A stretch of 64,000 bases of DNA from Squalus acanthias (GCA_030390025.1 CM059431.1:96722001-96786000), one strand, 5' to 3'; counted from the first letter of the stretch, positions 1,762 through 47,061 are shown. Notes: generated from the letters alone by a model not told the origin. Numbers and translations: made by a program.

Positions 1762-2305
1762 TTGGTGTCAGTTTGGCTCAGTGGGTAGCACTCTCACCTG
1801 ACTCAGAAGGATGTGGATTCAAGCACCACGCCAGCCCCTGATCTAGACTGACAATCCCAGTGCAGTACTGAGCTGAACTGTCAGAGGGGCAATACTGAGG
1901 GAGCGCCGCACTGTCAGAGGGGCAGTACTGAGGGAGTGCTGCACTGTCAGAGGGGCAGTACTGAGGGAACGCCGCACTGTCGGAGGGGCAGTACTGAGGG
2001 AGCGCCGCACTGTCGGAGGGGCAGTACTGAGGGAGCGCCGCACTGTCGGAGGGGCAGTACTGAGAGAGTGCCGCACTGTCGGAGGGGCAGTACTGAGGGA
2101 GCGCCGCACTGTCGGAGGGGCAGTATTGAGGGAACTCCGCACTGTCAGAGGGGCAGTACTGAGGGAGTGCTGCACTGTCGGAGGGGCAGTACTGAGGGAG
2201 CGCTGCACTGTCGGAGGTGCCGTCTTTCAGATGAGACGTTAAACCAAAGCCTCGTCTGCCCTCTCAGGTGGATGTAAAATATCCCGCAGGACTATTTAAA
2301 GATGA
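1762..2305 (+). mobile_element. tRNA-derived Deu-domain SINE (SacSINE1/AmnSINE-like), 5' part; continues at 3409-3625 after a Penelope insertion
   Basis: A box TGGCTCAGTGG and B-box-like GGATTCAAGC; body matches the intact copies at 33515-33960 and 50630-51075. Confidence 0.75.
1862..2218 (+). repeat. 33-bp minisatellite, about 11 units (CACTGTCGGAGGGGCAGTACTGAGGGAGCGCCG), expanded inside the SINE
   Basis: CTGTC(A/G)GAGG recurs about every 33 nt from ~1878 to ~2208; explains the 11-aa periodic ORFs. Confidence 0.95.
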
Positions 2306-2390
2306 TGCGGAGATGCCGGTGTTGGACTGGGGTGGACAAAAGTGAGAAGTCACACAACACCAGGTTATAGTCCAACAGTTTTATTTGAAA

Positions 2391-2427
2391 TCACGAGCTT
2401 TCGGAACGCTGCTCCTTCATCAGGTAA
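2391..2427 (-). ncRNA. minimal type I hammerhead ribozyme (Penelope pLTR)
   Basis: Minus strand reads UUAC-CUGAUGA-A-GGAGCAGCGUUCC-GAAA-GCUC-GUGA. Confidence 0.75.
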
Positions 2428-3319
2428 AGTGAGGGAATACAAATCAGATACAAAGCATATATAGACAGAGAACAATGTGTTTCTGACTGCCCTCCATCAC
2501 ACCTCGGCAGAGATACAATCAGTCAGGAAGGCATTACATCAAAGACACAGCAAAATACAGCTAAGACAATGAGGTGGGGTCACAGGGGGTCCAACGTGTC
2601 AAATGCTGCAGTCTGCAGTTAAGCTTTTTACTTTTTTTAAAACTGGAAATCACATCTGTGAACAAGACAACGACGACTGGAGTCTGGATGACTCTACGTC
2701 ATGTAGCATGACATGAAACCAAGATCCCGGTTGAGGCCATCCTCATGGGTGCGGAACTTGGCTATCGGTTTCTGCTTGATGATTTTGCGTTGTTGTGTGT
2801 CTCGAAGGCCGCCTTGGAGAGCGCTTACCCGCAGATCCGAGGCTGAATGTCCTTGACTGCTGAAGTGTTCCCCGACTGGGAGGTAACAATCCTGCCTGGC
2901 GATTGTTGCGCAGTGTCCGTTCATACGTTGTCTCAGTGTCTGCATGGTCACACGACAACGCAAAATCATCGAGCAGAAACTGATAGCCAAGTTCCGCACC
3001 CACGAGGACGGCCTCAACCGGGATCTTGGTTTCATGTCACGCTACATGGCGTAGTCATCCAGACTCGAGTCGTCGTTGTCTTGTTCACAGATGTGATTTC
3101 CAGTTTTTAAAAAAAGTAAAAAGCTTAACTGCAGACTGCAGCATTTGACACGTTGGACCCCCTGTGACCCCACCTCATTGTCTTAGCTGTATTTTACTGT
3201 GTCTTTGATGTAATGCCTTCCTGACTGATTGTATCTCTGCCGAGGTGTGATGGAGGGCAGTCAGAAACACATTGTTCTCTGTCTATATATGCTTTGTATC
3301 TGATTTGTATTCCCTCACT

Positions 3320-3356
3320 TTACCTGACGAAGGAGCAGCGCTCCGAAAGCTCGTGA
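3320..3356 (+). ncRNA. minimal type I hammerhead ribozyme (Penelope pLTR)
   Basis: UUAC-CUGACGA-A-GGAGC AGC GCUCC-GAAA-GCUC-GUGA: core, stem II, palindromic AGCU stem III, stem I. Confidence 0.8.
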
Positions 3357-3408
3357 TTTCAAATAAAACTGTTGGACTATAACCTGGTGTTGTGCGACTT
3401 CTCATTTT

Positions 3409-3625
3409 TATTTAAAGATGAGCAGTGGATTTCTCCTGTTTATCTTGGTCAACATTTATCCCTCTACCAACATCTCGCTGCTGTTTTTTGGGATCTTGCT
3501 GTGTGCAAAGTGAATGCTACATTTTCTTACAAAAAAGATAGCGTGCGCTTCAATTAATTGGCTGCTCATCGCTTTGGGACATCCTGAGGATGTGAAAGAT
3601 GCTGAATAAAAGCAAGTTCATCCTT
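3409..3625 (+). mobile_element. Deu-domain SINE 3' part
   Basis: GGGATCTTGCTGTGTGCAAA...CGCTTTGGGACATCCTGAGGATGTGAAAG, matching the 3' half of other SINE copies. Confidence 0.75.
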
Positions 3626-4259
3626 TCTCAGAAAGGACCATTTCTCCCTGATATAATGATCATATAAAATACCATTGGCAACCAAAAAGCTAGTCTGTGT
3701 TTCCCTTACACAAAACACAGTGCAGGGTTTTAAGCACAGAATCTGTTTACTTTGCCAGCTGCAATACAACTTTTCAGCTGTCACTTATTTCAAAAAGATA
3801 TAAATTATGGTATCTGCTGGTGACGGACTAAAGGATGTGTTGCAGGGAGTTCTGGAATTATGCACCAATAGCATTCATTGCACATTTTGGAAAGAGGTTA
3901 CTGTAGATTTTCTTTATTCAAAGTTACTTTATTACTGAGTTTTAGCCACTAACCCCACCAATAACTTCTTACAGACATCGCCTCCTTTTCAACTCTCACT
4001 TCATCAGATCGCTGCACACATTCAGATTAAAAAGGGGAAGTTCACAGTAGGAATTCCTGCAGTTTCTCACACTGCTGACCGACAGAATCCACACATTCTG
4101 TGGGAAAGTTGATCAGAATGGAAAATGGACAGGCAAAAACTCCTTTCAGAGAAGTTGATTATTGTTTAATATACAATTTGTGTCACATTTACTGGGGCAG
4201 AACAGGAGGCTCCGAGAGTGCGGCAACTCATTGGTGTGGGAAAGACTGACTATGAAATA

Positions 4260-4353
4260 TACACTTCACCTGAGGAAGGGGTGTAAGCTCCGAAAGCTTG
4301 TGATTTCAAATAAAACTGTTGGACTATAACCTGGTGTTGTGCGACTTCTCATT
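4260..4353 (+). mobile_element. solo Penelope pLTR fragment containing a hammerhead (4265-4303)
   Basis: UCAC-CUGAGGA-AGGGG..CUCC-GAAA-GCUU-GUGA followed by the pLTR end; flanked by TATGAAATA at 4251-4259 and 4354-4362. Confidence 0.8.
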
Positions 4354-4719
4354 TATGAAATAAGATTATTCACTCAATATTGACCAACAGTCACTAACAT
4401 GAGGTGAGATTCTTCACTGCTTTTCATCCAAGGCTCAATTTACAAAAAAACAGAATCCTACCAATTCACAAGCTTTAAAGGATCACCAATAATTACAAGA
4501 TTGCGCAGGAATATTTTCTTTCCAACGCCCTTATCAAAAACTACACACAAGACTCGACGAAGCTGTGCCTTGTGCAAAGTGTAAACAACAAGCCGTTGGC
4601 ACCGAGCCAGTTGCCCCATTTCACACCTTTCACAGTCGCCCAGAGACGCGGGCAGGAACATCGCTAAATCACCTCAGCCTCTCAACAAGTTTCAACACGG
4701 GAAGAAGTTCAACGAGAAA

Positions 4720-5420
4720 ACAATCCTGGAAATGCACAACAGGTCGGCGACTTTAGCAAAGAACCTTCCCGCAGTCCCACTCGCCGCTCCGGGAGTCGGT
4801 CCGACCCGCTGCACCGCTCCCTGGAGCTCCGACACCGGGAATGACCACAAACTGGAGCCGAGGCGGAATGTGGGAAAGTTGGAGGCGGATTCGAGCAGGA
4901 ATGGCTCTGGAGATCGAGACTGGGCTGGCAAACGCGGCGCCGGTCCCCGGTGGGTGATTCCCGGTTCCCGGTGCCGGTCCGACCTCCCCCCGCGGGTTGG
5001 GGTTTCACGGGCGGGGACTCACTCGCTGTCCCTCCGGCGAAGGTCACTCACCCAGCGGCGGATCGCGGTCCGGAGCCCGCTCCAGTCCATCGCCGCTCCG
5101 GCTCCCGGTGCGCAGCACTCGGCTCTAATCCGCTGCCACACGGCGCATGTTCCGGCTCCGCCCGCCTGGCTCTGCCCCGCGGCCTGAAGCGAACCAGCGG
5201 CTGCCGCCTGGCCGGAGTCCCGGAGCCCCGGAGTGGGGCAGCACCGGCGCAACAGGCGGGCAGTAGCGGCGCAGCAGACAGACGCTGAATGATTCGCGGC
5301 GAAAGTCTCTGGGAATCTTGAAACAAAATCTAATGGGAGGGCGGATCTTCAGCCTCTAGTTAATATTAATATTTAATATTAGCAGCGCTGCCCTCTCGCT
5401 GTTTGCAGCCAATCAAAGGA
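4720..5420 (-). promoter_or_regulatory. CpG island / ATP11A promoter and first exon region
   Basis: Dense CpG and GC content around exon 1; GGGCGG near 5339 and CCAAT near 5409. Confidence 0.7.
5052..5090 (-). CDS. ATP11A: P4-ATPase phospholipid flippase ATP11A, coding exon 1 (MDWSGLRTAIRRW)
   Basis: ATG in GCGGCGATGG context, 39 nt, then GTGAGT donor. Resembles human ATP11A N-terminus MDCSLVRTLVHRY, and ATP11A is head-to-head with TUBGCP3 in human (recalled). Confidence 0.8.
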
Positions 5421-5589
5421 CTTGCTGTCTCAGAAGGGCAAGACTGATGTCACACATGTTTTGGGCCAGCATTTACTGCAGAGTTGCACCTGTTTACAGC
5501 ACAGGAACAGGCCATTCGGCCCTACTGGTCCGTGCTGGTGTTTCTGCTCCACACCAGCCTCCTCTCACCCCTCTTCCTTTCACCCTATC

Positions 5590-5793
5590 GTGCGGAGATG
5601 CCGGCGTTGGACTGGGGTGGACAAAAGTGAGAAGTCGCACAACACCAGGCTATAGTCCAACAGTTTTATTTGAAATCACAAGCTTTCGGAGCTGCTGCCC
5701 CTTCACCTGACGAAGGGGCAGCAGCTCCGAAAGCTTGTGATTTCAAATAAAACTGTTGGACTATAACCTGGTGTTGTGCGACTTCTCACTTTT
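5590..5793. mobile_element. Penelope pLTR-only fold-back insertion with hammerhead (5703-5740, +)
   Basis: ~80-bp near-perfect inverted arms; 12-bp TSD TTTCACCCTATC at 5578-5589 and 5794-5805; inserted in a CR1-type 3' fragment. Confidence 0.9.
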
Positions 5794-7044
5794 TTTCACC
5801 CTATCAGCATATCCTTCTATTCCTTTCTCCCTCATGTGCTTATCTCGCTTCCCCTGTCGCCGGCATTGGAATAATATTGGTGTCAGTTTGGCTCAGTGGA
5901 TAGCACTGTTTAATTTCCGTACAGCTTTGCACTGGAACTTGCTGTCAGTGGGAGACAGAAACAGTGCAACGCCCTCTACAGGGCAAGCAACCGAGTCTCT
6001 CCTTAACCAATCAGATTGAAGAATCATTAACGAGCAGCGCAATCTGAACCAGGAAGTGTTGGAATCGTGAATTCAATGTCAAATCAGGCACAGAAAGCAA
6101 AGTAAAGAAAGATGGGATTTAGAGAGATTAAAGAGGCAGGAATTTTTTTAAATAAAAATATTCCTTTTTTATTTTTTGAAATCTCCAACAATAATTAAAA
6201 TCTGTAACATTCACTGTTCTATATCAGATATTCTCTCATGTTTAAGCATTACCATTCAATCTTATAAGTGGACTTTGTGTCCGCTATGACCCGGAGTGCG
6301 CCTTTACACCTTTACTTCCCAATGTCTAGTAAACGATAGCATGACCTTGGGATCGCAACATAGGCCTCTGCTGCATGTACTGGATACTATGATCACACAT
6401 GTACCACCACTTGTTCTCTCCTGTCTTTACAGAAGTTGGACTAAAAAGCACACTCGTGAGATGAGGTATTATAAACCAACAAACTGATTTAAAATGAAAT
6501 ATATATTCAGTGTGAGTTTCAATTCCCTACTACTCTTCATTCCATAAAAAGAAATCAAATATGCAACTCTACCGCTGCTCTTACCAAAACTCATTTTCAA
6601 GCTAACTGCTACTGTCTTTAGGGTAGAAAGAGTGTGGATTCACATCACTGCTATTTTAGAGCCTTTATGTGTCTCTGACTGATTCACACTGACCCTCTTT
6701 CTCTCTACAGCAACACTAATTGCTGTAAACCAAAACATTCTCTCTCCGGGATGTTTACAGTGTTGTTATTGTGGTTTTTTAAAATTTCAGCCAATCAAAA
6801 AGTATGACACCAGGACGTGTTACCACATCATAATGCAGAATTTGTGATTCCAAAGCACCATGGACAGGAATTATTGTACTATTTTTTAATATATGAACAG
6901 TGAATCTCCAGTAGTATTGATCATGGAAAGTTGTTAGACTCTGGGGCAGAGCTTTGTCTTCATTCCCTGGGCTGTAATCTGATGAGTGGATTGGCTGTCT
7001 GTAATAGAACCTGCATGATTTTGAAGGAATGAGCGGTCGCACAA

Positions 7045-7242
7045 CTTAGAGGGAACGTTGCTCTCCACCTCTTTCTGTTTAAGATGCTCCTTAAAAACCT
7101 ACCTCTTTGACCAAGCTTTTGGTCACCTGTCCTAATATCTCCTTATGGGGCTCAGTGTCAAATTTTGTCTGATAAACGCTCCTGTGAAGCGCCTTGGGAC
7201 GTTTTACTATGTTAAAGGCGCTGTGTAAATGCAAGTTGTTGT
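7045..7242 (+). mobile_element. L2 LINE 3' end fragment
   Basis: GTGAAGCGCCTTGGGACGTTTTACTATGTTAAAGGCGCT...GCAAGTTGTTG tail; reverse complement of the L2 end at 10442. Confidence 0.75.
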
Positions 7243-7599
7243 GGGTGGGAACCTGGTTCTTTGGGGATTCTTGCCCGTTTGCTGCGGCCTTTTAAATTCA
7301 GTGGACTGGGGACGGCGGGGGAGGGGATTAATGGACAGATCTTCTGCCCTGCTCCCCCACTAAATCAAGGAAGCATGTTGGGCGGCGGGGGTTCTCAGGC
7401 TTCCTGGGTATCCCATCAATTACTACATCAGTAACTCACCAGCAGGGAGCTGCTGTGAGTCCCACAGGAATCTTTGAAGCAGTCACAAACTTTCATTAAA
7501 GAAAGGGAATCGGTCCCGGAGTGGATCCACCGCTTCACTCTGAGACAATGCACTGGGAGTAAAGATTGCTTTTCTGATTTTTTTTCTTCTCCAAAAAAT

Positions 7600-9225
7600 G
7601 GCCTGTGGGCAGGGGCTTTGGCCTGTGGGCTGGGTGTGTGCTCTGGGCAGGGCTTTGGGCTCTGGGCAGAGCTTGGATGGTGGGCGGGGTTTGGGCTGTG
7701 GGTGGGGTAACATAAGAACATAAGAAATAGGAGCAGGAGTAGGCCATTTGGCCCTTCGAGCCTGCTCCGCCATTCAATAAGATCATGGCTGATCTGATCT
7801 TGGCCTCAACTCCACTTTTCCGCCCGCTCCCCATAACCCTTGACTCCCCTGTAGCTCAAATGTCTATCTCTGCCTTGAATATATTCAATGACTCTGCCTC
7901 CACAGCTCTCTGGGGTAGAGAATTCCAAAGATTCATGACCCTCTGAGAGAAAAAATTCCTCCTCATCTCCGTTTTAAATGGGCGACCCCTTATTCTGAAA
8001 CTATGCCCCCTAGTTCTAGATTCCCCCACAAGGGGAAACATCCTCCCTGCATCTACCCTGTCAAGCCCCCTCAGAATCTTATATGTTTCAATAAGATCAC
8101 CTCTCATTCTTCTAAACTCCAATGAGTATGGCCCAACCTGCTCAAACTTTCTTCATAAGACAACCACTTCATCTCAGGAATCAACCTAGTGAACCTTCTC
8201 TGAACTGCCTCCAATGCAAGTATTTCCCTCCTTAAATAAGGACAGCAAAATTGCACGCAGTACTCCAGGTGTGATCTCACCAGCGCCCTGTACAATTGTA
8301 GCAAGACTTCCCTACTTTTATACTCCATCCCCCTTGCAATAAGGGCCAACATTCCATTTGCCTTCCTAATTACTTGCTGTACCTGCATGCTAACTTTTTG
8401 TGTTTCATGTACGAGGACCCCCAGATCCCTCTGTACCGCAGCATTTTGTAGTCTCCCTACATTTAAATAATAATTTGCTTTTTTATTCTTCCTACCAAAG
8501 TGGATAACCTCACATTTTCCCACATTATACTCCATCTGCCAAATTTTGACCCACTCACTTAACCTATCTATATCCCTTTGCAGACTCTTCGTGTCCTCCT
8601 CACAACTTGCTTTCCCACCTATCTTTGTATCATCAGCAAATTTGGCTACAGTACACTCTGTCCCTTCATCCAAGTCATTAATATAGATTGTAAATAGTTG
8701 TGGCCCCAGCACTGATCCCTGTGGCACTCCACTAGTTACAGTTTGCCAACCTGAAAATGACCCATTTACCCTGACTCTGTTTCCTGTTAGTTAGCCAATC
8801 CTCTATCCATGCTAATATATTACCCCCAACCCTATGAGCTCTTATCTTGTGCAGTAACCTTTTATGTGGCACCTTATTGAATGCCTTCTGGAAATCCAAA
8901 TACACTACATCTACTGGTTCTCCTTTATCCACCCTGCTCGTTACATCCTCAACGAACTCGAGTAAATTTGTCAAACACGTGTGTGCTGTGGGCGGGATTT
9001 GGGTGGTGGGCGGGGCTTGGGCAGTGGACGGGGTGTGTGCTGTGGGCAGGGCTTGGGCGGTGGGCAGGACTTGGGCAGGGGGTGTGCTGTGAGCAGGGCT
9101 TGGGCGGTGGGCGGGGTTTGTGCAGTGTGTGGGGTGTGTGCTGTGGGCAGGGCTTGGGCGGTGGGCTTGGGCAGTGGGTGGGACTTGGGCAGGGCATGTG
9201 CTGTGGGCGGGGATTGGGGCAGGCG
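7600..9225 (+). repeat. G-rich degenerate minisatellite (TGTGCTGTGGGC[A/G]GGGCTTGGGC), split by a CR1 insertion at 7707-8977
   Basis: Same motif on both sides of the CR1 (7600-7706 and 8978-9225). Confidence 0.8.
7707..8977 (-). mobile_element. CR1 LINE, 5'-truncated (RT domain)
   Basis: ORFs with [24 protein letters not shown] and FADD motifs; CR1 3' tail. Confidence 0.95.
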
Positions 9226-10441
9226 GCCCTGATGGACCCTTGCGGGTGCAATGTGCCCCTGGCTGTGTAAATGATTCCATCCCCGGGGCATCTCCAGCTG
9301 GGGCAGGAGGTTCAATTCTGCCGATCTCTTGGGGCCACCAGTTTATTCAGCACAATCACTGTCCCAGTGTCGCACAATCTCCAGCACGGTTGTTGTTAGG
9401 ATGGTAAAGACCAGGACACCAACCACCTTACACCACTGATACTGAAGTGGAGACTGACTTTTATTGGTTTCCTTTGGGTGTGGCAGGTTTCATAAATAAA
9501 TAGTCAGCTGCATGAACTCTTGATTTTATTCATTTATTGCAGAGTGAGATTTTGAAAGTTGTAAAACAGCAGCCTCTTAAAGTTCACAGGTTTTAAACTG
9601 AGGTAGAACATTGTAGGAAAATTGGAAGCAAATCAAACAACATAGAATAGGGTTAAAAGTCAAATTCCTTTGAATTTGGGAATTCTTAAAAAGACAATAA
9701 TTTTTATGGTTTAAACACTGAAAGCCTAATTTACCAGCGCAATCAGTCGGCCAGCCTGCCCTGTGTTTATGAACACCGTAATAAAAGCATCGAACCAAGG
9801 AGACTCCTCGCTGAAAACATAACTTGGTTCAATTCCCAAGAAAGCTTTTGAAAAACAAATCAGACTTTCCCTTGGTTTTCAATCACTAATCCTTTATAAG
9901 GAAAGCCTTCCTGTAAGAGCATGCTATGAATGGCCTTTATGTCCGTGGGGCTGCTTGAGATTAGACGATCAGACACCAAAACAATTTCAATAAATGTAGC
10001 AAGGTCCTAAATGTGTTTTGAAACAGAATCCTAGGTAAATCATTTCCTTTGGATCCTTTTACCCGAGATTCAGAATGACAAAGACTGAGGACATTCGGTC
10101 AGCGAGAGAAAGATTAAAGAAGATAACAAACTTAGAGCCGACCATTTTAGCAACAGAACGAATTTGAGCAGGAAGACAAGCTCAAAGTGAAAATTGTGAC
10201 CAATTAGTTTGGTAACGGTTAAGATGAAACAGAAAATGATGCCTGTCGAACTAAAACCAGGAAGAGAGGATTCCCTAAAAGCATTTCAACAGAGGGACAG
10301 CACCAGATTGGCACAGAAGAGGATTCAATGCTGACCTTTTGGTCTGACCATTTCTGTCATAAGCCTTTTTACTAAAACTGATACTATTTACTAATCTGTC
10401 TATTCAATGAGACTTTAATCAGAGGCACCATCTGCCTGCTC

Positions 10442-11366
10442 AACAACAACAACAACTTGTATTTATATAGCGCCTTTAACGTAGTAAAACGTCCCAAGGC
10501 GCTTCACAAGAGTATTATAAGACAAAAAATTTGACACCGAGCCACATAAGGAGTTATTAGGGCAGAGGTAGGTTTTAAGGAGTGTCTTAAAGGAGGAAAG
10601 AGAGGTAGAGGCGAAGAGGTTTAGGCAGGGAATTCCATGGTTTAGGGCATAGGCAACAGAAGACACGGCCACCAATGGTTGAGCGATTATAATCAGGGAT
10701 GCTCAAGAGGGCAGAATTAGAGGAACGCAGATATCTCTGGGGGTTGTGGGGCTGGAGGACATTACAGAGATAGGGAGGGGCGGGATTTGAAAACAAGGAT
10801 GAGAATTTTGAAATTGAGGCGTTGCTTAACCAGGAGCCAATGTAGGTCAGCGAGCACAGGGGTGATGGGTGAAGGGGACTTGGTGCGAGTTAGGACACGG
10901 GCAGCAGAGTTTTGGATGACCTCAAGTTTACGTAGGGTAGAATGTGGGAGGCCAGCCAGGAGTACATTGGAATAGTCAAGTCTAGAGGTAACAAAAGGTA
11001 TGGATGAGGGTTTCAGCAGCGGATGAGCTGAGGCAAGGGTGGAGACGGGCGATGTTACAGAGGTGGAAATAGGCGGTCTTAGTTATGCTGCGGATATGTG
11101 GTCGGAAGCTCATTTCAGGGTCAAAATTGACACCAAGGTTGCGAACAGTCTGGTTCAGCCTCAAACAGATGCTAGGGAGAGGGATGGAGTCAGTGGCTAG
11201 GGAACGGAGTTTCTGGCAGGAACCGAAAACAATGGCTTCAGTCTTCCCAATATTTAATTGGAGAAAATTTCTGCTCATCCAGAACTGGATATCTGACAAT
11301 TTAGAGGCCATGGAGGGGCCGAGAGAAGTGGTGGTGAGGTAGAGCTGGGTGTCATCAGCATACATG
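10442..11366 (-). mobile_element. L2 LINE 3' fragment
   Basis: MYADDTQLY...WMSRNFLQLNIGKTEAIVFG (L2-type RT); (TTG)n tail. Confidence 0.9.
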
Positions 11367-11612
11367 TGCTCAGGTGGTTGTAAAAGATCCCATGATCTTA
11401 TTTGCTATATAATTGCAAGTTTGTTGTTGTTATGCACTGTTATAGTATTACATGGTTACATGGCATTTACAGCACAGAAACAGGCCATTTGGCCCAACAG
11501 GTCCATGCCGGTGTTTCTGCTCCACATAAGCATCTGCCCACCCTTCCCCATCTAACCCCATCAACATATCAACAACAACTTGTATTTATATAGCGCCTTT
11601 AACATAGTAAAA

Positions 11613-14545
11613 CCGCTACAGAAAACAATAATAAGAATAAAACCGGCCGGACCACCCAGCATCGACCTCGGCACCAACTTCAGACACGACAACGGCACAC
11701 CCAGCCCAGTCGACCCTGCAAAGTCCTCCTCACTAACATCTGGGGACTTGTGTCAAAATTGGGAGAGCTGTCACACAGACGAGTCAAGCAACAGCCTGAC
11801 ATAGTCATACTCACAAAATCATACCTTTCAGCCAATGTCCCAGACTCCGTCATCACCATCCCTGGGTATGTCCTGTCCCACCGGCAGGAGAGACCCACCA
11901 GGGGTGGTGGCACAATGGTATACAGTCGGGAGGGCGTGGCCCTGGGAGTCCTCAACATTGACTCCGGACCCCATGAAGTCTCATGGCTTCAGGTCAAGCA
12001 TGGGCAAGGAAACCTCCTGCTGATTACCACCTACCGCCCTCCCCCAGCTGATGAATCTGTACTCCTCCATGTTGAACACCACTTGGAAGAAGCACTGAGA
12101 GTAGCAAGGGCACAGAATGTACTCTGGGTGGGGGACTTCAATATTCATCACCAAGAGTGGACCGAGCTGGCTGAGTCCTGAAGGACATAGCTGCCAGACT
12201 GGGCCTGTGGCAGGTGAAGAGAGAACCAACATGAGGGAAAAGCTGACTTGACCTCGTCCTCACCAATCTACCTGTCACAGATGCATCTGCCCATGACAGC
12301 ATTGGTAGCAGTGACCACCGCACAGTCATTGTGGAGACATAGACCCGTCTTCGCACTGAGGACACCCTCCATCGTGTTGTGTGGCACTACCACCATGCTA
12401 AATGGGACAGATTCAGAACAGATCTAGTAGCTCAAAACAGGGCATCCATGAGGCGCTGCGGGCCATCAGCAGCAGCAGAATTGTATTCCAACACAATCTG
12501 TAACCTCATGGCCCGGCATATGCTTCACTCTACCATTACCATCAAGTCAGGGGACCAACCCTGGTTCAATGAGGAGTGCAGAAGAGCATGCCAGGAGCAG
12601 CACCAGGTGTACCTAAAAATGAGGTGCCAACCTGTGGTAGCTACAACTCAGGACTACGTGCATGCTAAACAGCGAAAGCAGCATGCTATAGACAGAGCTA
12701 AGCGATACCACAATCAATGGATCAGTTCAAAGCTCTGCAGTCCTGCCACATCCAGTCGTGAATGGTGGTGGACAATTAAGCAACTAACCGGAGGAGGAGG
12801 CTCCATGAATATCCCCATCCACAATGATGGCGGAGCCCAGCACGTGAGTGCAAAAGACAAGGCTGAAGTGTTTGCAACCACCTTCAGCCAGAAGTGCCAA
12901 GTGGATGATTCATATTGGCCTCCTCCTAATGTCTCCACCATCGCAGAAGCCAGTCTTCAGCCAATTCAATTCTCTCCACGTGATATCAAGAAATGGCTGA
13001 GCGCACTGGATACAGCAAAGGCTATGGGCCCCGACAACATCCCGGCTATCGTGCTGAAGACTTGTGCTCCAGAAATAGCCGTGCCTCTAGCCAAGCTGTT
13101 CCAGTACAGCTACAACACTGGCATCTACCTGACAATGTGGAAAACTGCCCAAATATGTCCTGTTCCCAAAAAGTAGGACAAATTCAATCCGGCCAATTAC
13201 CACCCCATAAGCCTACTTTTAATCATCAGCAAAGTGATGGAAGGTGTCATCAACAGTGCTGTCAAGCGGCACTTGCTCACCAATAACCTGCTCACCGATG
13301 CTCAGTTTGGACTCCGCCAGACCTCATTTCAGCCTTAGTCCAAACATGGAGAAAAGAGCTGAATTCCAGAGGTGAGGTAAGAGTGACTGCCCTTGACATC
13401 AAGGCAGCATTTGACCGAATGTGGCATCAACTAGCCCTAGTAAAATTGAAGTCAATGGGAATCAGGGGGAAAACTCCCCAATGGCTGGAGTCATACCTAG
13501 CACAAAGGAAGATGGTTGTGGTTGTTGGAGGTCAATCATCTCAGCCTCAGGGCATTGCTGCAGGAGTTCCTCAGGGCAGTGTCCTGGGACCAACCATCTT
13601 CAGCTGCTTCATCAATGAATTTTCCTCCATCATAAGGTCAGAAATGGGGATGTTCGCTGATGATTGCACAGTGTTCAGTTCTATTTGAAACTCCCCAGAT
13701 AATGAAGCAGTCCATGCCTGCATGTAACAAGACCTGGACAACATTCAGACTTGGGCTGATAAGTGGCAAGTAACATTCGCGCCACACAAGTGCCAGGCAA
13801 TGACTACCTCCAACAAGCGAGAGTCCAACCACCGCCCCTTGACATTCAACGGCATAAACATTACCGAATCCCCCACCATCAACATCGTGGAGGCCACCAT
13901 TGACCAGAAATTTAACTGAACCAGCCACATAAATACTGTGGCTACAAAAGCAGGTCAGAGGCCGGGTATGCTGTGGCGAGTGTCTCACCTCCTGACTCCC
14001 CAAAGCCTTTCCACCATCTACAAGGCACAAGTCAGGAGTGTGATGGAATACTCTCCACTTGCCTGGATGAGTGCAGCTCCAACAACGCTCAAGAAGCTCG
14101 ACACCATCCAGGAGAAAGCAGCCCACTTGCTTGGCACCCCATCCACCACTTTAAACATTCACTCCCTCCACCACCGGTGCACCGTGTACCATCTACAAGA
14201 TGCATTGCAGCAACTCGCCAAGGCTTCTTCAGCAGCACCTCCCAAACCCGTGACCTCTACCACCTAGAAGTACAAGGACAGCAGGCGCATGGGAAAACCA
14301 TCACCTGCAAGTTCCTCTCTAAGTTACACACCATCCTGACTTGGAAATATATCGCCGTTTGTTCATCGTCGCTGGGTCAAAATCCTGGAACTCCCTCCTT
14401 AACAGCACTGTGGGAGTACCTTCACCACACAACTGCAGTGGTTCAAGAAGGCCGCTCACCATCACCTTCTCAAGGGCAATTAGGGATGGGCAATAAATGC
14501 TGGCCTTGCCAGTGATGCCCACATCCCAGGAATGAATTTAAAAAA
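11613..14545 (+). mobile_element. CR1/L2-group APE-RT LINE, near full length, degenerate; inserted in an L2 fragment (11571-11612 and 14546-14995)
   Basis: APE motifs (PDIVILT, GDFN) and RT motifs ([21 protein letters not shown]) with several stops. Confidence 0.9.
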
Positions 14546-15115
14546 ATCTCATGGCTCCTCACAGGAGCTTAATCAGACAAAATTTGACACGGCGCTACAT
14601 AAGGAGATATTAGGGCAGAGGTAAGTTTTAATAAGCATCTTAAAGGAGGAAAGAGAGGTAGTGAGGTGGAGTGGTTTAAGGAGGGAATTCCAGAGCTTAG
14701 GGCCTTGGCAGCTGAAGGCCCCGCTTCCAATGATGGAGCAATTAAAATCAGGGATTTTCAAGAGGCCAGAATTGGAGGAGCGCAGAGATCTCCGGGTTGT
14801 AGGGCTGGAGGAGATTACAGAGATAGGGAGGTGCGAAGCCTTGCAGGGATTTGAAAACAAGGATGAGATTTTTAAAATTGAGGTGTTACTTAACTGGGAG
14901 CCAATGTAGGTCAGCAAGCACAGGATTGATGGGCGAACGGCACTTGGTGTGAGTTATGACACGGGCAGCCGAGTTTTATATGACCTCAACTTTACGTTCT
15001 ATTCCTTTCTCTCTCATGTAGTTATCTAGCTTCCCCATAAATGCATCTATGCTATTCGCATCAACTATGTGGAAGCGGGTTCTAAATTCTAACCACTTTC
15101 TGGGTAAAGAAGTTT

Positions 15116-18100
15116 AAGAACATAAGAACATAAGAAATAGGAGCAGGAGTAGGCCAATCGGCCCCTCGAGCCTGCTCCGCCATTCAATAAGATCATGGCT
15201 GATCTGATCCTAACCGCCAATCTACTATCTATCACAGAACCATCTCCTGCATCTAACAGAATTGCACACACGAAATAGGAGCAGAATCAGGCTACACGGT
15301 CCCTGGGCCCGCTCCACTACCCACAGGGCCATGACCGATCCGAACCTAGACTCATGTCCAAATTCCTGCCCGCTCCCCGTAACCCTTAATGCCCTTTACT
15401 TCTAGGAAACTGTCTATTTCTGTTTTAAATTTATTTAATGATGTAGCTTCTACAGCTTTTTGTGGCAGCATATTCCATGGACCTACCACCCTCTGAGTGA
15501 AGTAGTTCCTCCTCATCTCAGTTTTGAAAGAGCAGCCCCTTATTCTAAGACTATGTCCCCTAGTTCTAGTCTCACCCGTCATCGGGAACATCCTCCCCGC
15601 ATCCACCCGATCCAACCCCTTCACAATCTTATATGTTTCAATAAGATCGCCTCTCATTCTTCTGAACTCCAATGAGTAGAGTCCCAATCTACACAACCTC
15701 TCCTCATATGACCACCCCCTCATCCCCGAGATTAACCGAGTGAACCTTTTTTGCACTGCCTCGAGTGCAAGGATGTCTTTCCTTAAGTAAGGACACCAAA
15801 ACTGTATGCAGTGTTCCAGGTGCGGTCTCACCAATACCTTGTACAACTGAAGCAATACCTCCCTATTTTTATATTCTATCCCCCTAGCAATGAAAGCCAA
15901 CATTCCATTTGCCTTCTTAATCACTTGCTGCACCTGCATACTAACCTTTTGAGTTTCGTGCACCAGGACCCCCAGATCCCTTTGCACTTCAGTACTCTCC
16001 AGTTTCTTGCCATTAAGATAATAAATTGCTCTCGGATTTTTCCTGCCAAAGTGCATCACCTCACACTTTCCAGTGTTGTATTCCATCTGCCAAATCTCTG
16101 CCCACTTACTTAGCCTGTCTATGTCCCCTTGCAGGTTTTTTATGTCCTCCTCACTCACTACTTTCCCTCCCATCTTTGTATCATCTGCAAATTTTGATAT
16201 GTTACACTTGGTCCCTTCCTCCAAATCGTTAATATAGATTGTAAAGAGTTGGGGACCCAGCACTGACCCCTGTGGAACACCACTAGTTACTGATTGCCAG
16301 TCTGAGAATGAACCATTTATCCCAACTCTTTGCTTTCTGTTAGATAGCGAATCCTCTATCCATGCCAGAATATTACCCCCAATCCCGTGATTTCTTACCT
16401 TAAGCAATAATCTTTTGTGTGGCACCTTGTCAAATGCCTTTTGGAAGTCTAAATACACTACGTCCACTGGTTCCCCTTTATCCACTCTATATGTTACTTC
16501 CTCAAAGAACTCCAGCAAATTTGTCAAACATGACTTCCCCTTCGTAAAACCATGCTGACTTTGTCCTATTAAATTATGATTATCCAAATGTCCTGTTACT
16601 GTTTCCTTAATAATGGACTCCAAAATTTTACCTACCACAGATGTTAGGCTAACCGGTCTATAGTTACCAGCCTTCTGTCTACTGCCCTTTTTAAATAAGG
16701 GTGTTACATTAGCAGTTTTCCAGTCTCCAGGGAGTTTTGAAAAATTATTACCAATGCATCTACAATCCCTACCGCCACTTCCTTCAAGACTCTAGGATGT
16801 AAGCCATCAGGTCCAGGTGATTTATCCGCCTTGAGTCCCATTATTTTACCGAGTACCACTTCCTTAGTGATTTTGATCGTGTTTAGCTCCTCTCCCCCTA
16901 TGGCCCCCTGTTTGTCCAGTGTTGGGATATTCTTAGTGTCCTCTACTGTAAAGACTGATACAAAATATTCATTCAGTGTTTTTGCCATCTCCATATTTCC
17001 CACCATTAATTTCCCGGTCTCATCCTCTAAGGGACCAACATTTACTTTAGCCACCCTTTTTCTTTTTATATAACTATAAAAACTCTTACTATCTGTTTTT
17101 ATATTTTTTGCTAATTTACTTTCATAATCTATCTTCCCTTTCTTAATCAATCTTTTTGTTATTTTTTGCTGCCTTTTAAAGTTTTCCCAATCCTCTGTCC
17201 TCCCACTAGATTTCGCTACCTTATATGCCCTTGTTTTTAGTCGAATACTATCCTTAATTTCTTTACTTAGCCACGGATGACTGTCCTTTCTTTTACACCC
17301 TTTTCTTTTCAGTGGAATATATTTTTTTTGGAAGTTGTAAAATAACTCCTTGAATGTACACCACTGATCATGTGTCGTCTTACCCTTTAATCTATTTTCC
17401 CAATCCACTCTACTCAATTCCGCTCGCATACCTTCATAGTCTCCTTTATTCAAGCTTAGCACGCTTGTTTGAGATCCAACCTTCTCACCCTCTAATTGAA
17501 TATGGAATTCAACCATGTTATGGTCACTCATTCCAAGGGGATCCTTTACTAGGACATTTTTAATTAATCCTGTCTCGTTACACAGGACCAGATCTAAGGT
17601 TCCTTGCCCCCTGGTTGGTTCAGTTACATACTGCTCAAGAAACCCATCCCTGATACACTCAATGAACTCATCCTCAAGGCAGCCCTGCCCCATTTGATTT
17701 GTCCAATTAATATGATAGTTAAAATCCCCCATAATTATAGATGTTCCCTTATTACATGCCTCAACTATTTCCTGATTGATACTCCGTCCAACAGAGTTGC
17801 AACTGTTCGGAGGCCTATAGACTACGCCCACTAGTGTTTTTTTCCCCTTATTATTCCTTATCTCCACCCAAACTGTTTCATTATCATGATTTTTTGACCC
17901 AATATCATTACTCTGTATTACAGTGATTCCTTCCTTTATTAACATAGCCACCCCACCTCCCCTTCCTTCCTGCCTGTCCTTCCTGATCGTTAAATAACCT
18001 GGTATGTTTAATTCCCAGGCATTGTCACCCTGCAGCCATGTTTCTGTAATGGCCACAATATCATAACCATATGTAGTTATTTGTGCCATTAACTCGTCTA

Positions 18101-18552
18101 TTTTGTTACGAATGCTACGTGCATTCAGATAGAGAACTTTCAAATATGCTTTGTGGCACTTAGTTCCTGCTTTTTCACTTTTTACCACTTTACCTTTTAC
18201 TCCACACACTCTGTCCCTTCCTGCCACGCTCTGATTTGTGATTCCCCTACTGCTACCTATGTCTATGACCCTCTCTGTTGTCATTTTTATTTTTTGCTCT
18301 CTTGAAACCTCCCCCCCCACTAATTAGTTTAAAGCCCTCTCCACAGCCCTAGTTATTCGATTCGCCAGGACACTAGTCCCAGCACTGGCCAAGTGAAGTC
18401 CGTCCCAACGGAACAGCTCTCTCCTGCCCCAGTATTGGTGCCAGTGTCCCAAGAAGCAAAACCCATTTTTCCCACACCAGTCTTTGAGCCACGCATTCAA
18501 CTCCCTGATTTTATTTACCCTAGCCAAATTTGCTCGTGGCTCAGGTAGTAAT
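15116..18552 (-). mobile_element. CR1 LINE, near full length: ORF1 esterase C-terminus (18324-18527) and ORF2 APE+RT (15352-18320, one frameshifting deletion near 16725)
   Basis: ORF1 with SGNH-type DGLHL motif; ORF2 with [32 protein letters not shown]. Confidence 0.95.
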
Positions 18553-19450
18553 CCTGAATTCCCTATTGGATTTATTAGTGACTATCTTATATTTATGGCC
18601 TGCAAATGGAAACATTTTCCCTACACCTACCCTATCAAACCCCTTCATAATCTTAAAGACCTCTATCAGGTCTTCCCTTTTCTAGAGAAAAGAGCCCCAA
18701 CCTGTTCAATCTTTCCTGATAGGTATAACTTCTCAGTTCTGGTATCATCCTAGTAAATCTTTTTTGCATCTTCTGCAGTGCCTCTATATCCTTTTTATAA
18801 CATGGAGACCAGAACTGTGCACAGTACTCCAATTGTGGTCTAACCAAGGGTCCATACAAGTTTAACATAACTTCTCTGCTTTTCAATTCTGTCCCTCTAG
18901 AAATAAACCCCAGTGCTTTGTTTGCTTTTTTCTAACCTTATTAACCTGCATTGCTTCTTATAATGATTTGTGTATCTGTACCCCATTTAGACACTTATTT
19001 TCCAAGGAGTATGTGGTCTTCTTATTCTTCCTACCAAAATGTACCATCTCGCACTTATCTATATTGAAGTTAATTTGCCAATTACATGCCCATTCTGCAA
19101 GTTTATTTGGGAGATTGTTCTCCGTAAGCCCAAATCCAAATGATCCAAATACACCAAGAATAAAAGTGTATCCAGCACTGACACCTGGGGAACAACACCT
19201 ACACGCCTTCTCCAATCCAAGCAACTCCCATTTACCCCAACTCTTTGTTTTCTGTCTTTCACCGACCTTACTATCCATGTTGCTACATTTTGTCTCGTAC
19301 CATATCCCTGAATCTTTGTAACAAGCTTCCTGTGAGGCACCTTATTGAATATCTTCTGAAAATCTATACACCCTACATCTACTGCATTCTTTGTATCTAT
19401 CCCATGCATTTCAAAATGCTCATTAACTTTATCTCAAACCATGGATTCTA
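18553..19450 (-). mobile_element. older CR1-type host element (other pieces at ~11455-11570 and 14996-15115)
   Basis: RT C-terminal fragments; sequence reads through when the nested insertions are removed. Confidence 0.75.
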
Positions 19451-19774
19451 AGGGTTTTCCCCAATTGACATTAGTCTACAGTTACCTGGTTTATCTTACT
19501 CTCTTTTCTTGAACCAATGTGTTACACTGGTGACTCTAGGTCCCCTGACAATTTGCATATTTATGGAGGGTGGAAAAATTGTGGCCAGGGCCTCTGGTCT
19601 CTGACTTCTTTTCACAGCCTAGGGTGCAGCCGTCAGCGCCCAGTGACTTATGCACCTTAACACTCTGCTTGTTAGTTCAGAGACAGCATAAGGTAGAGAG
19701 AGAGACAGAGACATAGGCCTCGATTTTCCTGAGATTTTCAGTAAAATAGCAGGTTGGGACTTCTGCCGACCCAC

Positions 19775-20680
19775 ATAGAATCATAGAATGTTACAGCACG
19801 GAAGGAGGCCATTTCGGCCCATCGTGTCCGCGCCGGCCAACAAAGAGCTATCCAGCCTAATCCCACTTCCCAGCTCTTGGTCCGTAGCCCTGCAGGTTAG
19901 AGTATCCCAAGTGCACATCCAAGTACTTTTTAAATGTGGTTAGGGTTCCTGCCTCTACCACCCTTTCAGGCAGTGAATTCCAGACCCCCACAACCCTCTG
20001 GGTGAAGAAATTTCCCCTCAAATCCCCTCTAAACCTTCCACCAATTATTTTAAATCTGTGCCCCCTGGTTTTTGACCCCTCTGCTAAGGGAAATAGGTCC
20101 TTTCTATCCACTTTATCTATGCCCATCATATTTTTATACACCTCAATAAGGTCTCCCCTCAGCCTCCTCTGTTCCAAGGAAAGCAGACCCAGCCTATCCA
20201 GTCTTTCCTCATAGCTAAGATTCTCTACTCCCGGCAACATCCTTGTAAATCTCCTCTGTATCCTCTCTAGTGCAATCACATCTTTCCTGTAATGTGGTGA
20301 CCAGAACTGCCGCAGTACTCTAGCTGAGGCCTAACTAGTGTTTTATACAGTTGAAGCATAACCCCCCTGCTCTTGTATTCTATGCCACGGCTAATAAAGG
20401 CAAGCATTCCGTATGCCTTCTTAACCACCTTATCTACCTGGCTTGCTGCCTTCAGGGATCTGTGGACATGCACTCCAGGTCCCTTTGTTCCTCTACACTA
20501 CTCAGTGTCCTACCATTTAATGTGTATTCCCTTTCCTTGTTAGCCCTCCCCAAATGCATTACCTCACACTTCTCCAGATTGAATTCCATTTGCCACTGTT
20601 CTGCCCACCAGACCAATTTATTGATATCTTCCTGCAGTCTACAGCTTCCTTCTTCAGTATCAACCACACAACCGATTTTA
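19775..20680 (-). mobile_element. CR1 LINE 3' fragment
   Basis: QRRFTRMLPG...FFTQRVVGVWNSLP; (TTCTATGA) tail. Confidence 0.9.
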
Positions 20681-21283
20681 GTATGAACCCACTGGCACCT
20701 GATCATATTTTCTTGGGTGGGGGGGGGAGTCTCATTTAATATGTAGGGAGCGAGTTCGACAACAATCCCGATCACGACTGGGGGTCTGCTACTCAGAGAG
20801 AAGGAAATGGTCACAACCACGGCAGCTCACTCAGAGGGAGAAGAGATAAAGCGAGAGCAAGAGCTTAAATTGAAAATTGAAAACCATGGCAGAGGAGGGT
20901 CTCTGGGGGTCTGCAATGACCATGGCCCCAAGATTCTCAGAAGCTGCAGTGGAGGTAATGGGGCAGAGAGAAGGTCCAGAAGACAAAGGCTCTTTGACAC
21001 TGAGGGAGTTATGCCCCAGGAATTGGATGTGCAGTTGTGGTCAGTGCCAACTCTGCCACCCCATGAACAGCTGTTCAGTGCCAAAATGTTGTAATGACCT
21101 CACCAGGCTGGCCAAGGTTAGTGAAGGCACAATTGCCCATCGAGATGCTGAGTTACGGCCGGAAGCATGGCTCATCTCCACACCATCCAGGACCTCATAT
21201 TGTCTAAGAAATTAATGAGACCCTTAGTTAGCATGACACCCTCCATTATCCCGTACAGAGGAACATCTCCTCTCCTGCCATTC

Positions 21284-22048
21284 CACTGTCCCATACCTCG
21301 GGAGCCGACTGTCAACAAGGGCAGACGTCGATGACGAAGTCCAACACCGCCTTCAGTGTGCCAGTGCAGCCTTCGGTCGCCTGAGGAAGAGTGTGTTTGA
21401 AGACCAGGACCTCAAACCCGGCACCAAGCTCAAGGTCTACAGAGCAGCAGTGATACCCTCCCTGCTGTATGCCTCAGAGACATGGACCATGTACAGCAGG
21501 CACCTCAAAGCACTGGAGAGGTACCACCAACGCTGCCTCCGCAAGATCCTTCAAATCCATTAGCAGGATAGGCGCACCTACATCAGTGTTCTCGCTCAGG
21601 CCAACATCCCCAGCATCGAAGCTTTGACCACGCTCGATCAGCTCTGATGGACGGGTCACATCGTCCGCATGCCCGATACAAGACTCCCAAAACAAGCGCT
21701 CTACTCGGAGCTCCGACACGGCAAGAGAGCCTCCTTGAAAAAGTGCAACATCCCCACTGACACCTGGGAATCCCTGGCCCAAGACCGCACAAAGTGGAGC
21801 AGAAGCATCCGGGAAGGCGCCGAACACCTCGAGTCTCTTTGCCGGGAGCAAGCGGAAGCCAAGCGCAAGCAGCGCAAGGAGCGCACGTCAACCCAAGCAC
21901 CCCACCCACCCGCCCCTTTAACCACCGTCTGCCCCACCTGTGACAGAGACTGTAGGTCCCGCATTGGACTCATCAGTCACCTGAGAACTCATTTTTAATG
22001 TGGAAGCAAGTCATCCTCAGTTCCGAGGGACTGCCTAAGAGAGAAGAG
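21284..22048 (+). mobile_element. RTE-clade LINE 3' fragment
   Basis: TKLKVYRAAV, MPDTRLPKQALYSEL and terminal CPTC...SHLRTH zinc-finger-like motif. Confidence 0.85.
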
Positions 22049-22922
22049 AGATCCAATTTCTTGCAATGATTAACTGGGAAAAGAAGAGATTGCTGCGTAG
22101 TCTGTACATGGCAGTATTTCACAAGGGAATGTCTGCAGACACCTGGGTGAAAACACATGGTGAAACAGTTTTTTTTTATTAGTTTATGGGATCAGGGCGT
22201 CGCTGGCAATGCCAGCATTTATTACCCATCCCTAGTTGCTCTTGAGAAGGTGGTGGTGAGCTGCCTTCTTGAACCACTGCAGTCCGTGTGGTGATGGTAC
22301 TCCCACAGTGCTGTTAGGTAGGGAGTTCCAGGATTTTGACCCAGCGACGATGAAGGATCGGCGATATACTTCTAAGTCAGGATGGTGTGTGACTTTGAGG
22401 GGAACTTGGAGGTGGTGGTGTTCCCATGCGCCTGCTGCCCTTGTCCTTCTAGGTGGAAGAGGTCGCGGGTTTGGGAGTTGCTGCCGAAGAAGCCTTGGCG
22501 AGTTGCTGCAGTGCATCTTGTAGATGGTGCACACTGCAGCCACGGTACGCCAGTGGTGGAGGGAGTGAATGTTTAAGGTGGTGGATGGGGTGCCAATCAA
22601 GCGGGCTGCTTTGTCCTGGATGGTGTCGAGCTTCTTGAGTGTTGTTGGAGCTGCACTCATCCAGGCAAGTGGAGAGTATTCCATCACACTCCTGACTTGT
22701 GCCTTGTAGATGGTGGAAAGGCTTTGGGGAGTCAGGAGGTGAGACACTTGCCGCAGAATACCTTGCCTCTGACCTGCTCTTGTTGCCATAGTATTTATGT
22801 GGCTGGTCCAGTTAAGTTTCTGGTCAATGGTGACCCCCAGGATGTTGATAGTGGGGGATTCGGCAATGGTAATGCCATTGAATGTCAAGGGGAGGTGGTT
22901 AGACTCTCGCTTGTTGGAAATA

Positions 22923-23127
22923 TGATGTGGAGATGCCAGTGTTGGACTGGGGTGGACAAATGTGAGAAGTCGCACGACACCAGGTTATAGTCCAACAGCT
23001 TTATTTGAAATCTCAAGCTTTCGGAGCGCTGCTCCTTCGTCACCTGACGAAGGAGCAGCGCTCCGAAAGCTTGTGATTTCAAATAAAGCTGTTGGACTAT
23101 AACCTGGTGTTGTGCGACTTCTCACAT
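22923..23127. mobile_element. Penelope pLTR-only fold-back insertion with hammerhead (23040-23076, +)
   Basis: ~95-bp inverted arms with a 2-nt loop; 12-bp TSD TTGTTGGAAATA at 22911-22922 and 23128-23139. Confidence 0.9.
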
Positions 23128-46797: not shown

Positions 46798-47061
46798 GTT
46801 CCTGTTCTTAAGCTGCCTGTAGCTGGCAATTTTAAAGTTTAAAACACCACAGGTGACTGTACAACATGCGTTATAACCTTAAGATTATACACCCGTTCAC
46901 TGCAGCAAGTTTTAAGTAGTGGACTCTGGAAACTCTAGTTCACTGAATTTTAAATTTGCATTTTTTTATGTAGTTTTTTTTCTTACAAGTTTTTGCTGAT
47001 ATGGTTTTTAATTTTATACTATTGCTTCCTTGTCTAAAGCTCACTTATTCTGCTTTTCCAG

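Follow-up and report, generated by a model that had tools for sequence, protein, structure and literature searches.

Short head-to-head copies of a Penelope-like element in Squalus acanthias and their probable origin by two-ended integration

How does a retroelement come to leave behind copies that consist of two inverted ends and little else? [quoted passage not shown] The transposition mechanism of PLEs is only partly understood, and not until 2024 did in vitro work explain how their inverted pseudo-long terminal repeat (pLTR) and one-sided tail originate. A preliminary description of the window had offered two answers, a non-autonomous family resembling miniature inverted-repeat transposable elements (MITEs) or stereotyped products of two-ended integration. 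We argue here for the second: the four insertions are probably dead-on-arrival products of a single endonuclease-positive PLE family, generated by priming from both ends of the target break at two adjacent start sites of reverse transcription (sites 1 and 2) and by run-off on a short RNA. Each structural feature has already been described for PLEs, and the shark insertions are real, well-preserved examples of a described kind. They are unusually clean as natural products: the target-site duplications (TSDs) are intact, empty sites can be proven, the junctions are close to blunt and each event has a single tail. Their value is that of a natural data set bearing on whether the two reverse transcription start sites are used in concert and whether short templates originate at a pLTR promoter.

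Four insertions of family 1

A blastn search of the whole window with both long arms of copy 1 returned exactly four loci comprising seven arms (copies 1 to 4, abbreviated c1 to c4; Table 1), and in this search the copies were arranged as solo or inverted copies only, with no direct tandem of family 1 copies within the window. The four insertions and their TSDs of 9-13 bp, as given in the preliminary description, were recovered in full: all four are bracketed by a duplication (of 13, 9, 12 and 12 bp from c1 to c4), while an identical search at random position pairs found a direct repeat of at least 9 bp at 47 of 5000. Paralogous empty sites could be identified for two of the four. In the case of c4, which interrupts the reverse transcriptase (RT) open reading frame (ORF) of a long interspersed nuclear element (LINE), three LINE paralogs (near 13.8, 31.2 and 53.2 kb) are uninterrupted and contain the 12-bp target once, and subtraction of 217 bp brings both halves of the interrupted frame back into register, as a matter of arithmetic only. 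In the case of c3, two paralogs of another dispersed repeat (near 33.2 and 43.6 kb) contain the target once. No paralogous empty site was found within the window for c1 or c2.

Head-to-head inverted pairs account for three of the four insertions (c1, c3 and c4), with arms that are 93-98% complementary. In c1 the complementarity amounts to 98% over 305 nt, plus two further blocks at 93%, around an unpaired centre of 149 nt; in c3 it is 97% over 90 nt with a loop of 7 nt, and in c4 98% over 87 nt with a loop of 2 nt. Within one hairpin, 76-77 positions of the two arms can be aligned and no more than 1-2 of them mismatch; each hairpin also has variants that are private to it and common to both its arms, namely C17 in c1, GGGGCAGCAGCUCC in c3 and AAAG in c4. 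The junctions, whose positions are ambiguous by 0-4 nt, differ from one hairpin to the next: relative to C3 of the hammerhead core, the arms of c1 end ~525 and ~375 nt upstream, those of c3 at G8 (+5) and between -6 and -2, and those of c4 at U4 (+1) and between -5 and 0. Since the arms share private variants and the junctions differ, the hairpins are independent integration products and none was copied from another; each was made anew from a single source, which may in each event have been one RNA.

Table 1. Positions of family 1 copies, of their parts and of second-family sequences in the window (Inr, initiator; HHR, hammerhead ribozyme).
Feature	Position	Strand	Remarks
c1	2306-3408		head-to-head inverted pair
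c1, tail-bearing arm	2306-2948	-	endonuclease C-terminus, stop, ~270-nt 3' untranslated region (UTR), hammerhead, reverse transcription start region, tail
c1, tail-less arm	2949-3408	+	the shorter arm, head-to-head with the left arm
c1, last 85 codons of PLE ORF (endonuclease C-terminus)	2694-2951	-	87% identity with the C-terminal end of a shark RT protein
c1, tail	2306-2338	-	AC-rich, in this arm alone; family terminus may start at 2303
c1, proposed pLTR promoter/start	3284-3321	+	TATATAT (3284-3290), 24 nt, Inr-like TCACTTT (3315-3321; A at 3317)
c1, mirror copy of TATA/Inr-like stretch	2426-2463	-	
c1, min-HHR of left arm	2391-2427	-	N7=U, H17=C; private C>T in stem II, giving G.U
c1, min-HHR of right arm	3320-3356	+	
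c1, TSD	2293-2305 and 3409-3421		13 bp, TATTTAAAGATGA
c2	4260-4353	+	94-bp solo insertion (blastn); hammerhead and reverse transcription start region, without tail
c2, min-HHR	4266-4303	+	N7=G; stem II GGGGU/GCUCC, loop GUAA
c2, TSD	4251-4259 and 4354-4362		9 bp, TATGAAATA
c3	5590-5793		head-to-head hairpin; sense of left arm minus, of right arm plus
c3, tail	5590-5622		left arm
c3, min-HHR of right arm	5703-5740	+	
c3, TSD	5578-5589 and 5794-5805		12 bp, TTTCACCCTATC
c4	22923-23127		head-to-head hairpin within LINE RT ORF
c4, tail	22923-22959		left arm
c4, min-HHR of right arm	23040-23076	+	the inverted arm contributes part of helix I (UCAC)
c4, TSD	22911-22922 and 23128-23139		12 bp, TTGTTGGAAATA
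Second family, RT remnant	46099-46798	-	30-45% identical to shark PLE proteins
Second family, min-HHR	45748-45784	-	316 nt downstream of the RT remnant
Second family, solo copy	29898-29982	+	85 bp, starts inside helix II; 12-bp TSD TTGCTTGATGGG at 29886-29897 and 29983-29994
Second family, head-to-head pair	35815-35880 / 35897-35992		older; ~16 nt between arms

The identity of the family is best read from c1, where a minus-strand frame reads ...TMQTLRQRMNGH...GLNRDLGFMSCYMT*, and the last 33 codons of this ORF are also present in the right arm (2950-3048). The 85-codon fragment is 87% identical to the C-terminus of P0001, a shark protein of 643 aa, and 67-84% identical to further proteins of several sharks and to P0015, an 881-aa ORF on a short assembly contig (67% with its C-terminus). 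In an exhaustive HMMER search the fragment matched 205 library proteins; among the matches listed, most lie at or near the C-terminus of the protein and a few well inside. RVT_1 was detected in P0001 (E 5e-9) and in P0015 (E 4e-10). For the nuclease, the local Pfam collection gave no GIY-YIG match in the c1 fragment, P0001 or P0015, even at E<=10, and the assignment rests on a lead from the ESM Atlas and on motifs read by eye: the Atlas clusters neighboring P0015 carry RVT_1, HTH_animal, DUF8422 and GIY-YIG, with GIY-YIG (PF01541) present in 26-77% of the members of some of them, and VYLIRC...WY(I/V)G(K/E)T...R..(N)GH, which we take to be the signature of such a domain, is readable in P0001 and P0015. 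An RT followed by a C-terminal nuclease region, together with the tail, TSD, inverted-copy and hammerhead features, is what marks a canonical endonuclease-positive PLE. With a single RT-bearing ORF (its last 85 codons in the window), an inverted copy, a one-sided tail and short TSDs, family 1 is, judged from its sequence, a PLE.

Contigs of four public runs were aligned to family 1, in numbers of 18309, 10696, 2175 and 58; the runs are from several organisms, which points to a high-copy family common to related species. A 22-nt anchor from the pLTR had 0 matches in metagenome contigs and 0 in viral contigs, and its one match in a bacterial genome (L002) has only the pattern in common and is regarded as a chance match. 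The only locus found with P0002 (L001) has a GIY-YIG-like ORF of 30% identity with no hammerhead nearby and is unrelated to family 1. We likewise rejected an antisense reading as a short interspersed nuclear element (SINE) transcribed by RNA polymerase III, for which a B-box-like GGTTATAGTCC can be picked out by eye: no Rfam tRNA model matches the copies, and the ORF of c1 fixes the sense.

The hammerhead motif and its counterpart in a second family

In the sense reading, the copies contain the order UCAC (or UUAC)-CUGA N GA-A-GGAGC AGC GCUCC-GAA-AGCU-U/C-GUGA, with the features of a min-HHR: the core order of type I, an unpaired A after CUGANGA, the pair G10.1-C11.1, the palindrome AGCU and a helix I of 4 bp. 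A descriptor of our own (helix I of 4 bp, CUGANGA with or without one additional base, a G-C-closed helix II of 4-8 bp, GAA, A...U, H and the return of helix I) found five complete motifs in the window, all of them in family 1 copies, and 0 in 100 Markov-1 random windows, so that the hammerhead earlier proposed for each insertion is confirmed as a motif. The related proposal that the hairpins are ribozyme-bearing stood for one arm of each of the short ones, c3 and c4 having a complete motif; it did not stand for their second arms, which break off within the catalytic core (at G8 in c3, at U4 in c4), leaving one motif each.

The four independent source sequences vary at N7 (C, U, G), at H17 (U, C) and in loop II, and the variation in helix II keeps the pairing (A-U to G.U, C-G to U.G). 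All other core positions are invariant in the copies of the window, N7 and H17 being those that the consensus leaves free; among the variant positions listed for contigs of the four public runs, N7 (2419) and H17 (2395) are likewise the only ones in the core. The pattern of variation fits a hammerhead, predicted to cut after GAAAGCUU and to leave a 5'-OH end at GUGAUUUC. The preliminary description had asked whether the core is better conserved than its flanks; in the ~53 nt that follow the ribozyme downstream, conservation is no lower than in the core. Taken alone, the 37-38-nt motif folds at minimum energy into the topology of helix I with helix II in all five cases, and in a 60-nt context two of the five keep it. 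Double-hammerhead pairing through AGCU was computed at -10.5 to -19.9 kcal/mol, a cost similar to the -12.2 to -22.4 kcal/mol of two monomers. An RNA reading through c3 is predicted to form a perfect hairpin of 97 bp (-170.5 kcal/mol, z -23) in which the ribozyme is buried.

Other observations weigh on the other side. Helix II has 5 bp with a loop of 3-4 nt in all five motifs, short of the typical 7-8 bp. None of the Rfam hammerhead models (Hammerhead_1, _3, _II, HH9, HH10) matched at the gathering score anywhere in the window, and at E<=10 none matched over 2200-6000 or over the 71 nt of 4255-4325. Lastly, not one of the seven arms has its start where cleavage is predicted, so that the copies bear no trace of ribozyme action. 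The silence of Rfam agrees with the special descriptor needed for such motifs, as set out in a section of Cervera and de la Pena (2014, PMC4209133).

A further comparison is provided by a second PLE family in the window (Table 1), with the motif AGUU-CUGACGA-A-AGGUC-UUCG-GACCU-GAA-ACGU-U-AACU. It was the one further match of a relaxed descriptor (45748-45784), for which 50 random control windows gave 0.02 matches on average and never more than 1. The two families have the same single-stranded core but unrelated flanks. In an alignment of the second-family motif with the five motifs of family 1, all 66 of 66 pair cells are standard pairs and 8 of the 11 pairs change on both sides between the families, a number reached by 0 of 500 shuffles; a shift of the partner by 1-3 columns lowers the share of paired cells to 21-50%. 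The covariation should be interpreted with caution, as the relaxed descriptor itself required a helix I of 3 bp and a helix II of at least 3 bp, so that the free observations are the extra pairs and the palindrome. Together with the endonuclease C-terminus of c1 and the min-HHR features, it upholds the earlier attribution to a Penelope element with a minimal type I hammerhead of the dimer type. In its insertions the second family behaves like family 1, with a solo short copy and a head-to-head pair.

Origin of the short and inverted copies

The outer ends of the copies are of two kinds. The tail-less arms and the solo c2 all end at ..GACUUCUCA(C/U)UUU, corresponding to site 1, whereas the other arm of each hairpin runs on for 33-37 nt, through GUCCACCCCAGUCCAACACCGGCAUCUCCGCA(UCA), of which 23 of 32 positions are A or C. 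This extension is found on exactly one arm in all three hairpins and is, by analogy with described elements, the PLE tail. Its outer edge is probably the true terminus of the family, since many contigs end their match at 2302 and continue in mutually unlike sequence (135 in X1, 127 in X3 and 20 in X6). The tail-less arm adjoins the TSD, with 1-4 nt assignable either to the U-run of the element or to the target, which starts T-rich. Site 1 lies ~53 nt and site 2 ~90 nt from the predicted cleavage site, and around the two sites a 9-bp helix (UGUUGGACU/AGUCCAACA) is predicted in c1, the z-scores of -1.26 and +0.28 giving the stem-loop weak support.

The inner ends of the short arms are equally restricted, all five lying within 14 nt (-8 to +5 of C3). 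In c1, the proposed promoter includes the word TCACTTT, which conforms to YYANWYY and whose A is located 7 nt upstream of C3, where homology to c2 begins; among the contig joints listed, two end at 2430, the Inr-like A of the minus-strand copy. Inner ends at the 5' edge of the hammerhead, where an Inr-like motif follows just downstream of a TATA box, suggest run-off cDNA from a pLTR-initiated RNA. The short copies would then be run-off cDNAs of RNAs from the pLTR promoter, or else of reverse transcription initiated in the 5'-proximal module of a full-length RNA.

We suggest the following scenario for their formation. The 3' module would comprise, in order, the TATA box, the Inr-like start, the min-HHR, ~53 nt, site 1 (..CUUCUCAC|UUUU), the AC-rich tail of 33-37 nt and site 2 (..CUCCGCAUCA). 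The target would be broken with a stagger of 9-13 bp, which gives rise to the TSD, and target-primed reverse transcription would proceed from both 3' ends of the break, site 1 serving one DNA end and site 2 the other. The resulting pair of cDNAs would be joined head-to-head, blunt or with an overlap of 0-4 nt, to yield an inverted pair with one tail. For the ~200-bp hairpins and the 94-bp solo copy, the template would be a short RNA starting 3-4 nt upstream of helix I, or reverse transcription would begin in the 5'-proximal module, and the cDNA would run off the 5' end of the RNA just past the ribozyme. The hammerhead would be a passive passenger in the copies, none of which appears to derive from a ribozyme-cleaved template. 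A comparable use of both break ends is known from human L1, where in twin priming the second 3' end of the staggered break primes on the RNA and produces an inversion within one TSD; L1 twin priming inverts adjacent, non-overlapping parts of the RNA, whereas the shark arms copy the same 3' part from two internal sites. The stereotyped two-ended integration products envisaged in the preliminary description fit these copies, whose arms share variants, whose tail is one-sided and whose site 1 ends adjoin the TSD.

A more specific version, which we put forward tentatively, is that a single short pLTR-initiated RNA primes both ends of the break as their common template, that long inverted copies serve as template factories, and that the hammerhead, placed at the extreme 5' end of the transcript, acts as a decapping or template-inactivating switch and not as a processing site that transposition requires. 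A single RNA with one start site per DNA end would explain why there is exactly one tail and why the same variants occur in both arms. If this were true, the minimal hairpins would be natural single-event records of PLE integration, their cDNAs having run to the capped 5' end, and copies like c1, with two outward-facing TATA/Inr promoters, would produce short templates.

Some of the evidence pulls the other way. The inner ends of c1, ~375 and ~525 nt upstream of C3, indicate that run-off at the start is not a general rule, and the TATA/Inr pair is seen in only one source sequence (both arms of c1), Inr-like words being common. Contig depth in two DNA runs was 3.4-6.7 million for the terminal ~90 nt, 0.3-1.9 million for the ORF part and 0.1-0.4 million immediately upstream of the ribozyme, which points weakly to many short copies, with the caveat that depth of contigs is no basis for ranking the parts of a gene and that a divergent 3' UTR may be under-represented. 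Finally, one tail in three of three hairpins has a chance of 0.125 if the two ends choose their site independently and evenly, and there are only three hairpins.

The most serious rival is self-priming, in which the cDNA snaps back at the palindrome and copies itself into the second arm. The identical private variants of both arms would follow automatically from such a process, the loops are tiny (7 nt in c3, 2 nt in c4), stem II of the hammerhead is itself a hairpin near the junction, and self-priming, possibly on an antisense template, is in print for palindromic inverted PLE junctions in one part of Arkhipova et al. (2013, PMC3846280). We nevertheless consider it unlikely for the shark copies, as the tail-less arm shares its end, CUUCUCAY UUU, with the solo c2 and adjoins the TSD with 1-4 nt of target overlap: a snap-back copy would need to stop at site 1 three times by coincidence, while priming on RNA predicts site 1. 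The unpaired centre of c1, at 149 nt, is not readily accommodated either, and extension of both strands as well as two start sites have been shown in vitro for a PLE (Frangieh, 2024, PMC11167929).

Poorer still are the prospects of a dedicated non-autonomous family, MITE-like or retrozyme-like, in which the unit of hairpin plus ribozyme itself replicates by means of PLE enzymes. It is true that the short copies lack coding sequence yet keep the hammerhead and the reverse transcription start module, that the terminal ~90 nt appear far more abundant than the upstream part in two DNA runs (a weak measure), and that animal retrozymes are reported to derive from PLE pLTRs in the part of the preprint by Li et al. 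(2026) that deals with them. However, the three hairpins have three different junctions and none is copied from another, the short copies lack the TATA box found upstream in c1, and a read-through transcript would fold into the 97-bp hairpin that buries the ribozyme. For retrozymes in particular, the head-to-tail tandem is the defining form of the non-LTR type, and blastn found none in the window. The MITE-like family proposed earlier is contradicted by the different junctions, by private variants per pair, by TSDs that vary between 9 and 13 bp, and by asymmetric ends, with an extra tail on one arm and one arm continuing into a PLE ORF. That the inverted pairs are artefacts of assembly, in which PLEs with inverted or tandem structure are troublesome according to a passage in Craig (2021), or later rearrangements of two neighboring independent insertions, is scarcely credible, given that a single TSD brackets each whole hairpin, that the empty sites of c3 and c4 show the pair to have been inserted as one unit, that private variants are common to both arms, that opposite-strand joints of family 1 also occur in contigs of independent runs, and that the second PLE family of the window has the head-to-head form too.

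Comparison with described elements and surroundings of the copies

Integration from both ends, as favored here, has close parallels in the literature on PLEs. An inverted, 5'-truncated copy plus a tail of 30-40 bp, often at one end only, is described in the part of Craig (2021) devoted to these elements. In vitro, both strands of the DNA are cleaved and extended by a PLE protein, an AC-rich stem-loop contains two adjacent internal sites at which reverse transcription starts, the stretch separating these sites is the tail, and hammerhead mutants leave insertion unaffected (Frangieh, 2024, PMC11167929). The element in question, the Poseidon-type PLE of Anolis carolinensis (PAc), resembles the shark family in having a hammerhead tens of nt upstream of two AC-rich reverse transcription sites, a tail of 30-40 nt between these sites, both strands cut and extended, AT-rich targets and uncleaved RNA as the inserted form (PMC11167929). 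They differ in that the PAc ORF starts inside the hammerhead, whereas the shark family has no ATG between the hammerhead and the end of the tail, and in that the shark copies show 1-4 nt of overlap between target and RNA at site 1, whereas no homology is reported for PAc.

Among rotifer PLEs, a 31-bp tail on one inverted pLTR, TSDs of 8-10 bp and a pLTR with the TATA box TATATATA plus a TCACT initiator are documented in the relevant portion of Arkhipova (2013, PMC3846280). Pen2a_Av of Adineta vaga and its relatives share with the shark copies the inverted pLTR, a TSD around the whole unit, the one-sided tail, TATA plus TCACT and palindromic inverted junctions; the rotifer units, as far as that account of them extends, differ in having the ORF between the pLTRs, whereas the short copies of the shark consist of nothing but two pLTR ends, with a start that lies downstream of the TATA box (PMC3846280).

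The hammerhead invites a similar comparison. Dual min-HHRs on opposite strands, 100-700 bp apart, are known in PLEs, and most metazoan PLE min-HHRs are single truncated copies, according to the sections of Cervera and de la Pena (2014, PMC4209133) on these motifs. From the same sections, the min-HHRs of Cercyon in Schistosoma and of Xena, Poseidon and Neptune in fishes have in common with the shark motif the core boxes, the unpaired nucleotide between A9 and 10.1, the pair G10.1-C11.1 and a 4-bp helix I, and, as in metazoan PLE min-HHRs generally, there is no real helix III, the palindromic tetranucleotide 15.1-16.1 implying a dimer. The shark motif differs in a helix II of 5 bp instead of the typical 7-8 bp, and the short shark hairpins in having a complete core in one arm only. 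Animal non-LTR retrozymes, in the part of the preprint covering them (Li et al., 2026), are likewise non-coding, hammerhead-bearing and related to PLE pLTRs, with dispersed monomer derivatives; they form head-to-tail tandems and are thought to move via circular RNA, unlike the shark copies, which form no tandem and keep both sides of the cleavage site in genomic order.

The hairpins also have a practical side. At 5661-5755, in c3, microRNA-precursor and V_AS5 models score far below gathering (for MIR8643, 52.9 bits against 135), because of the perfect hairpin. PLE hairpins like c3 could thus pass for microRNA genes, and perfect hairpins of ~200 bp are to be masked as PLE fragments.

As to the surroundings, c1 is inserted in another dispersed short repeat (2186-2305 with 3409-3470), possibly akin to a fish or shark SINE core, and part of its left flank recurs at 50871-50967 on the minus strand with 89% identity. 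Just upstream of c1, staggered self-matches of the flank reveal a tandem array with a period of ~33 bp (1872-2184). LINE copies with APE endonuclease and RVT_1 lie at 13.6-18.3, 22.2-23.7, 26.2-27.2, 31.0-32.2 and 53.0-53.4 kb, and three LINE copies of the window are the empty-site paralogs for c4. About 300 bp from c3, the region 4700-5300 is strongly G+C- and CpG-rich and looks like a CpG island or 5' exon region, and an open frame of 200 aa at 4585-5187 has no Pfam match. At 59384-59444 on the plus strand, a tRNA-like sequence reaches 36.9 bits with the Rfam tRNA model (gathering score 29); when aligned, it shows a shortened D arm and a shortened anticodon loop, and it may be a tRNA-derived repeat or a pseudogene.

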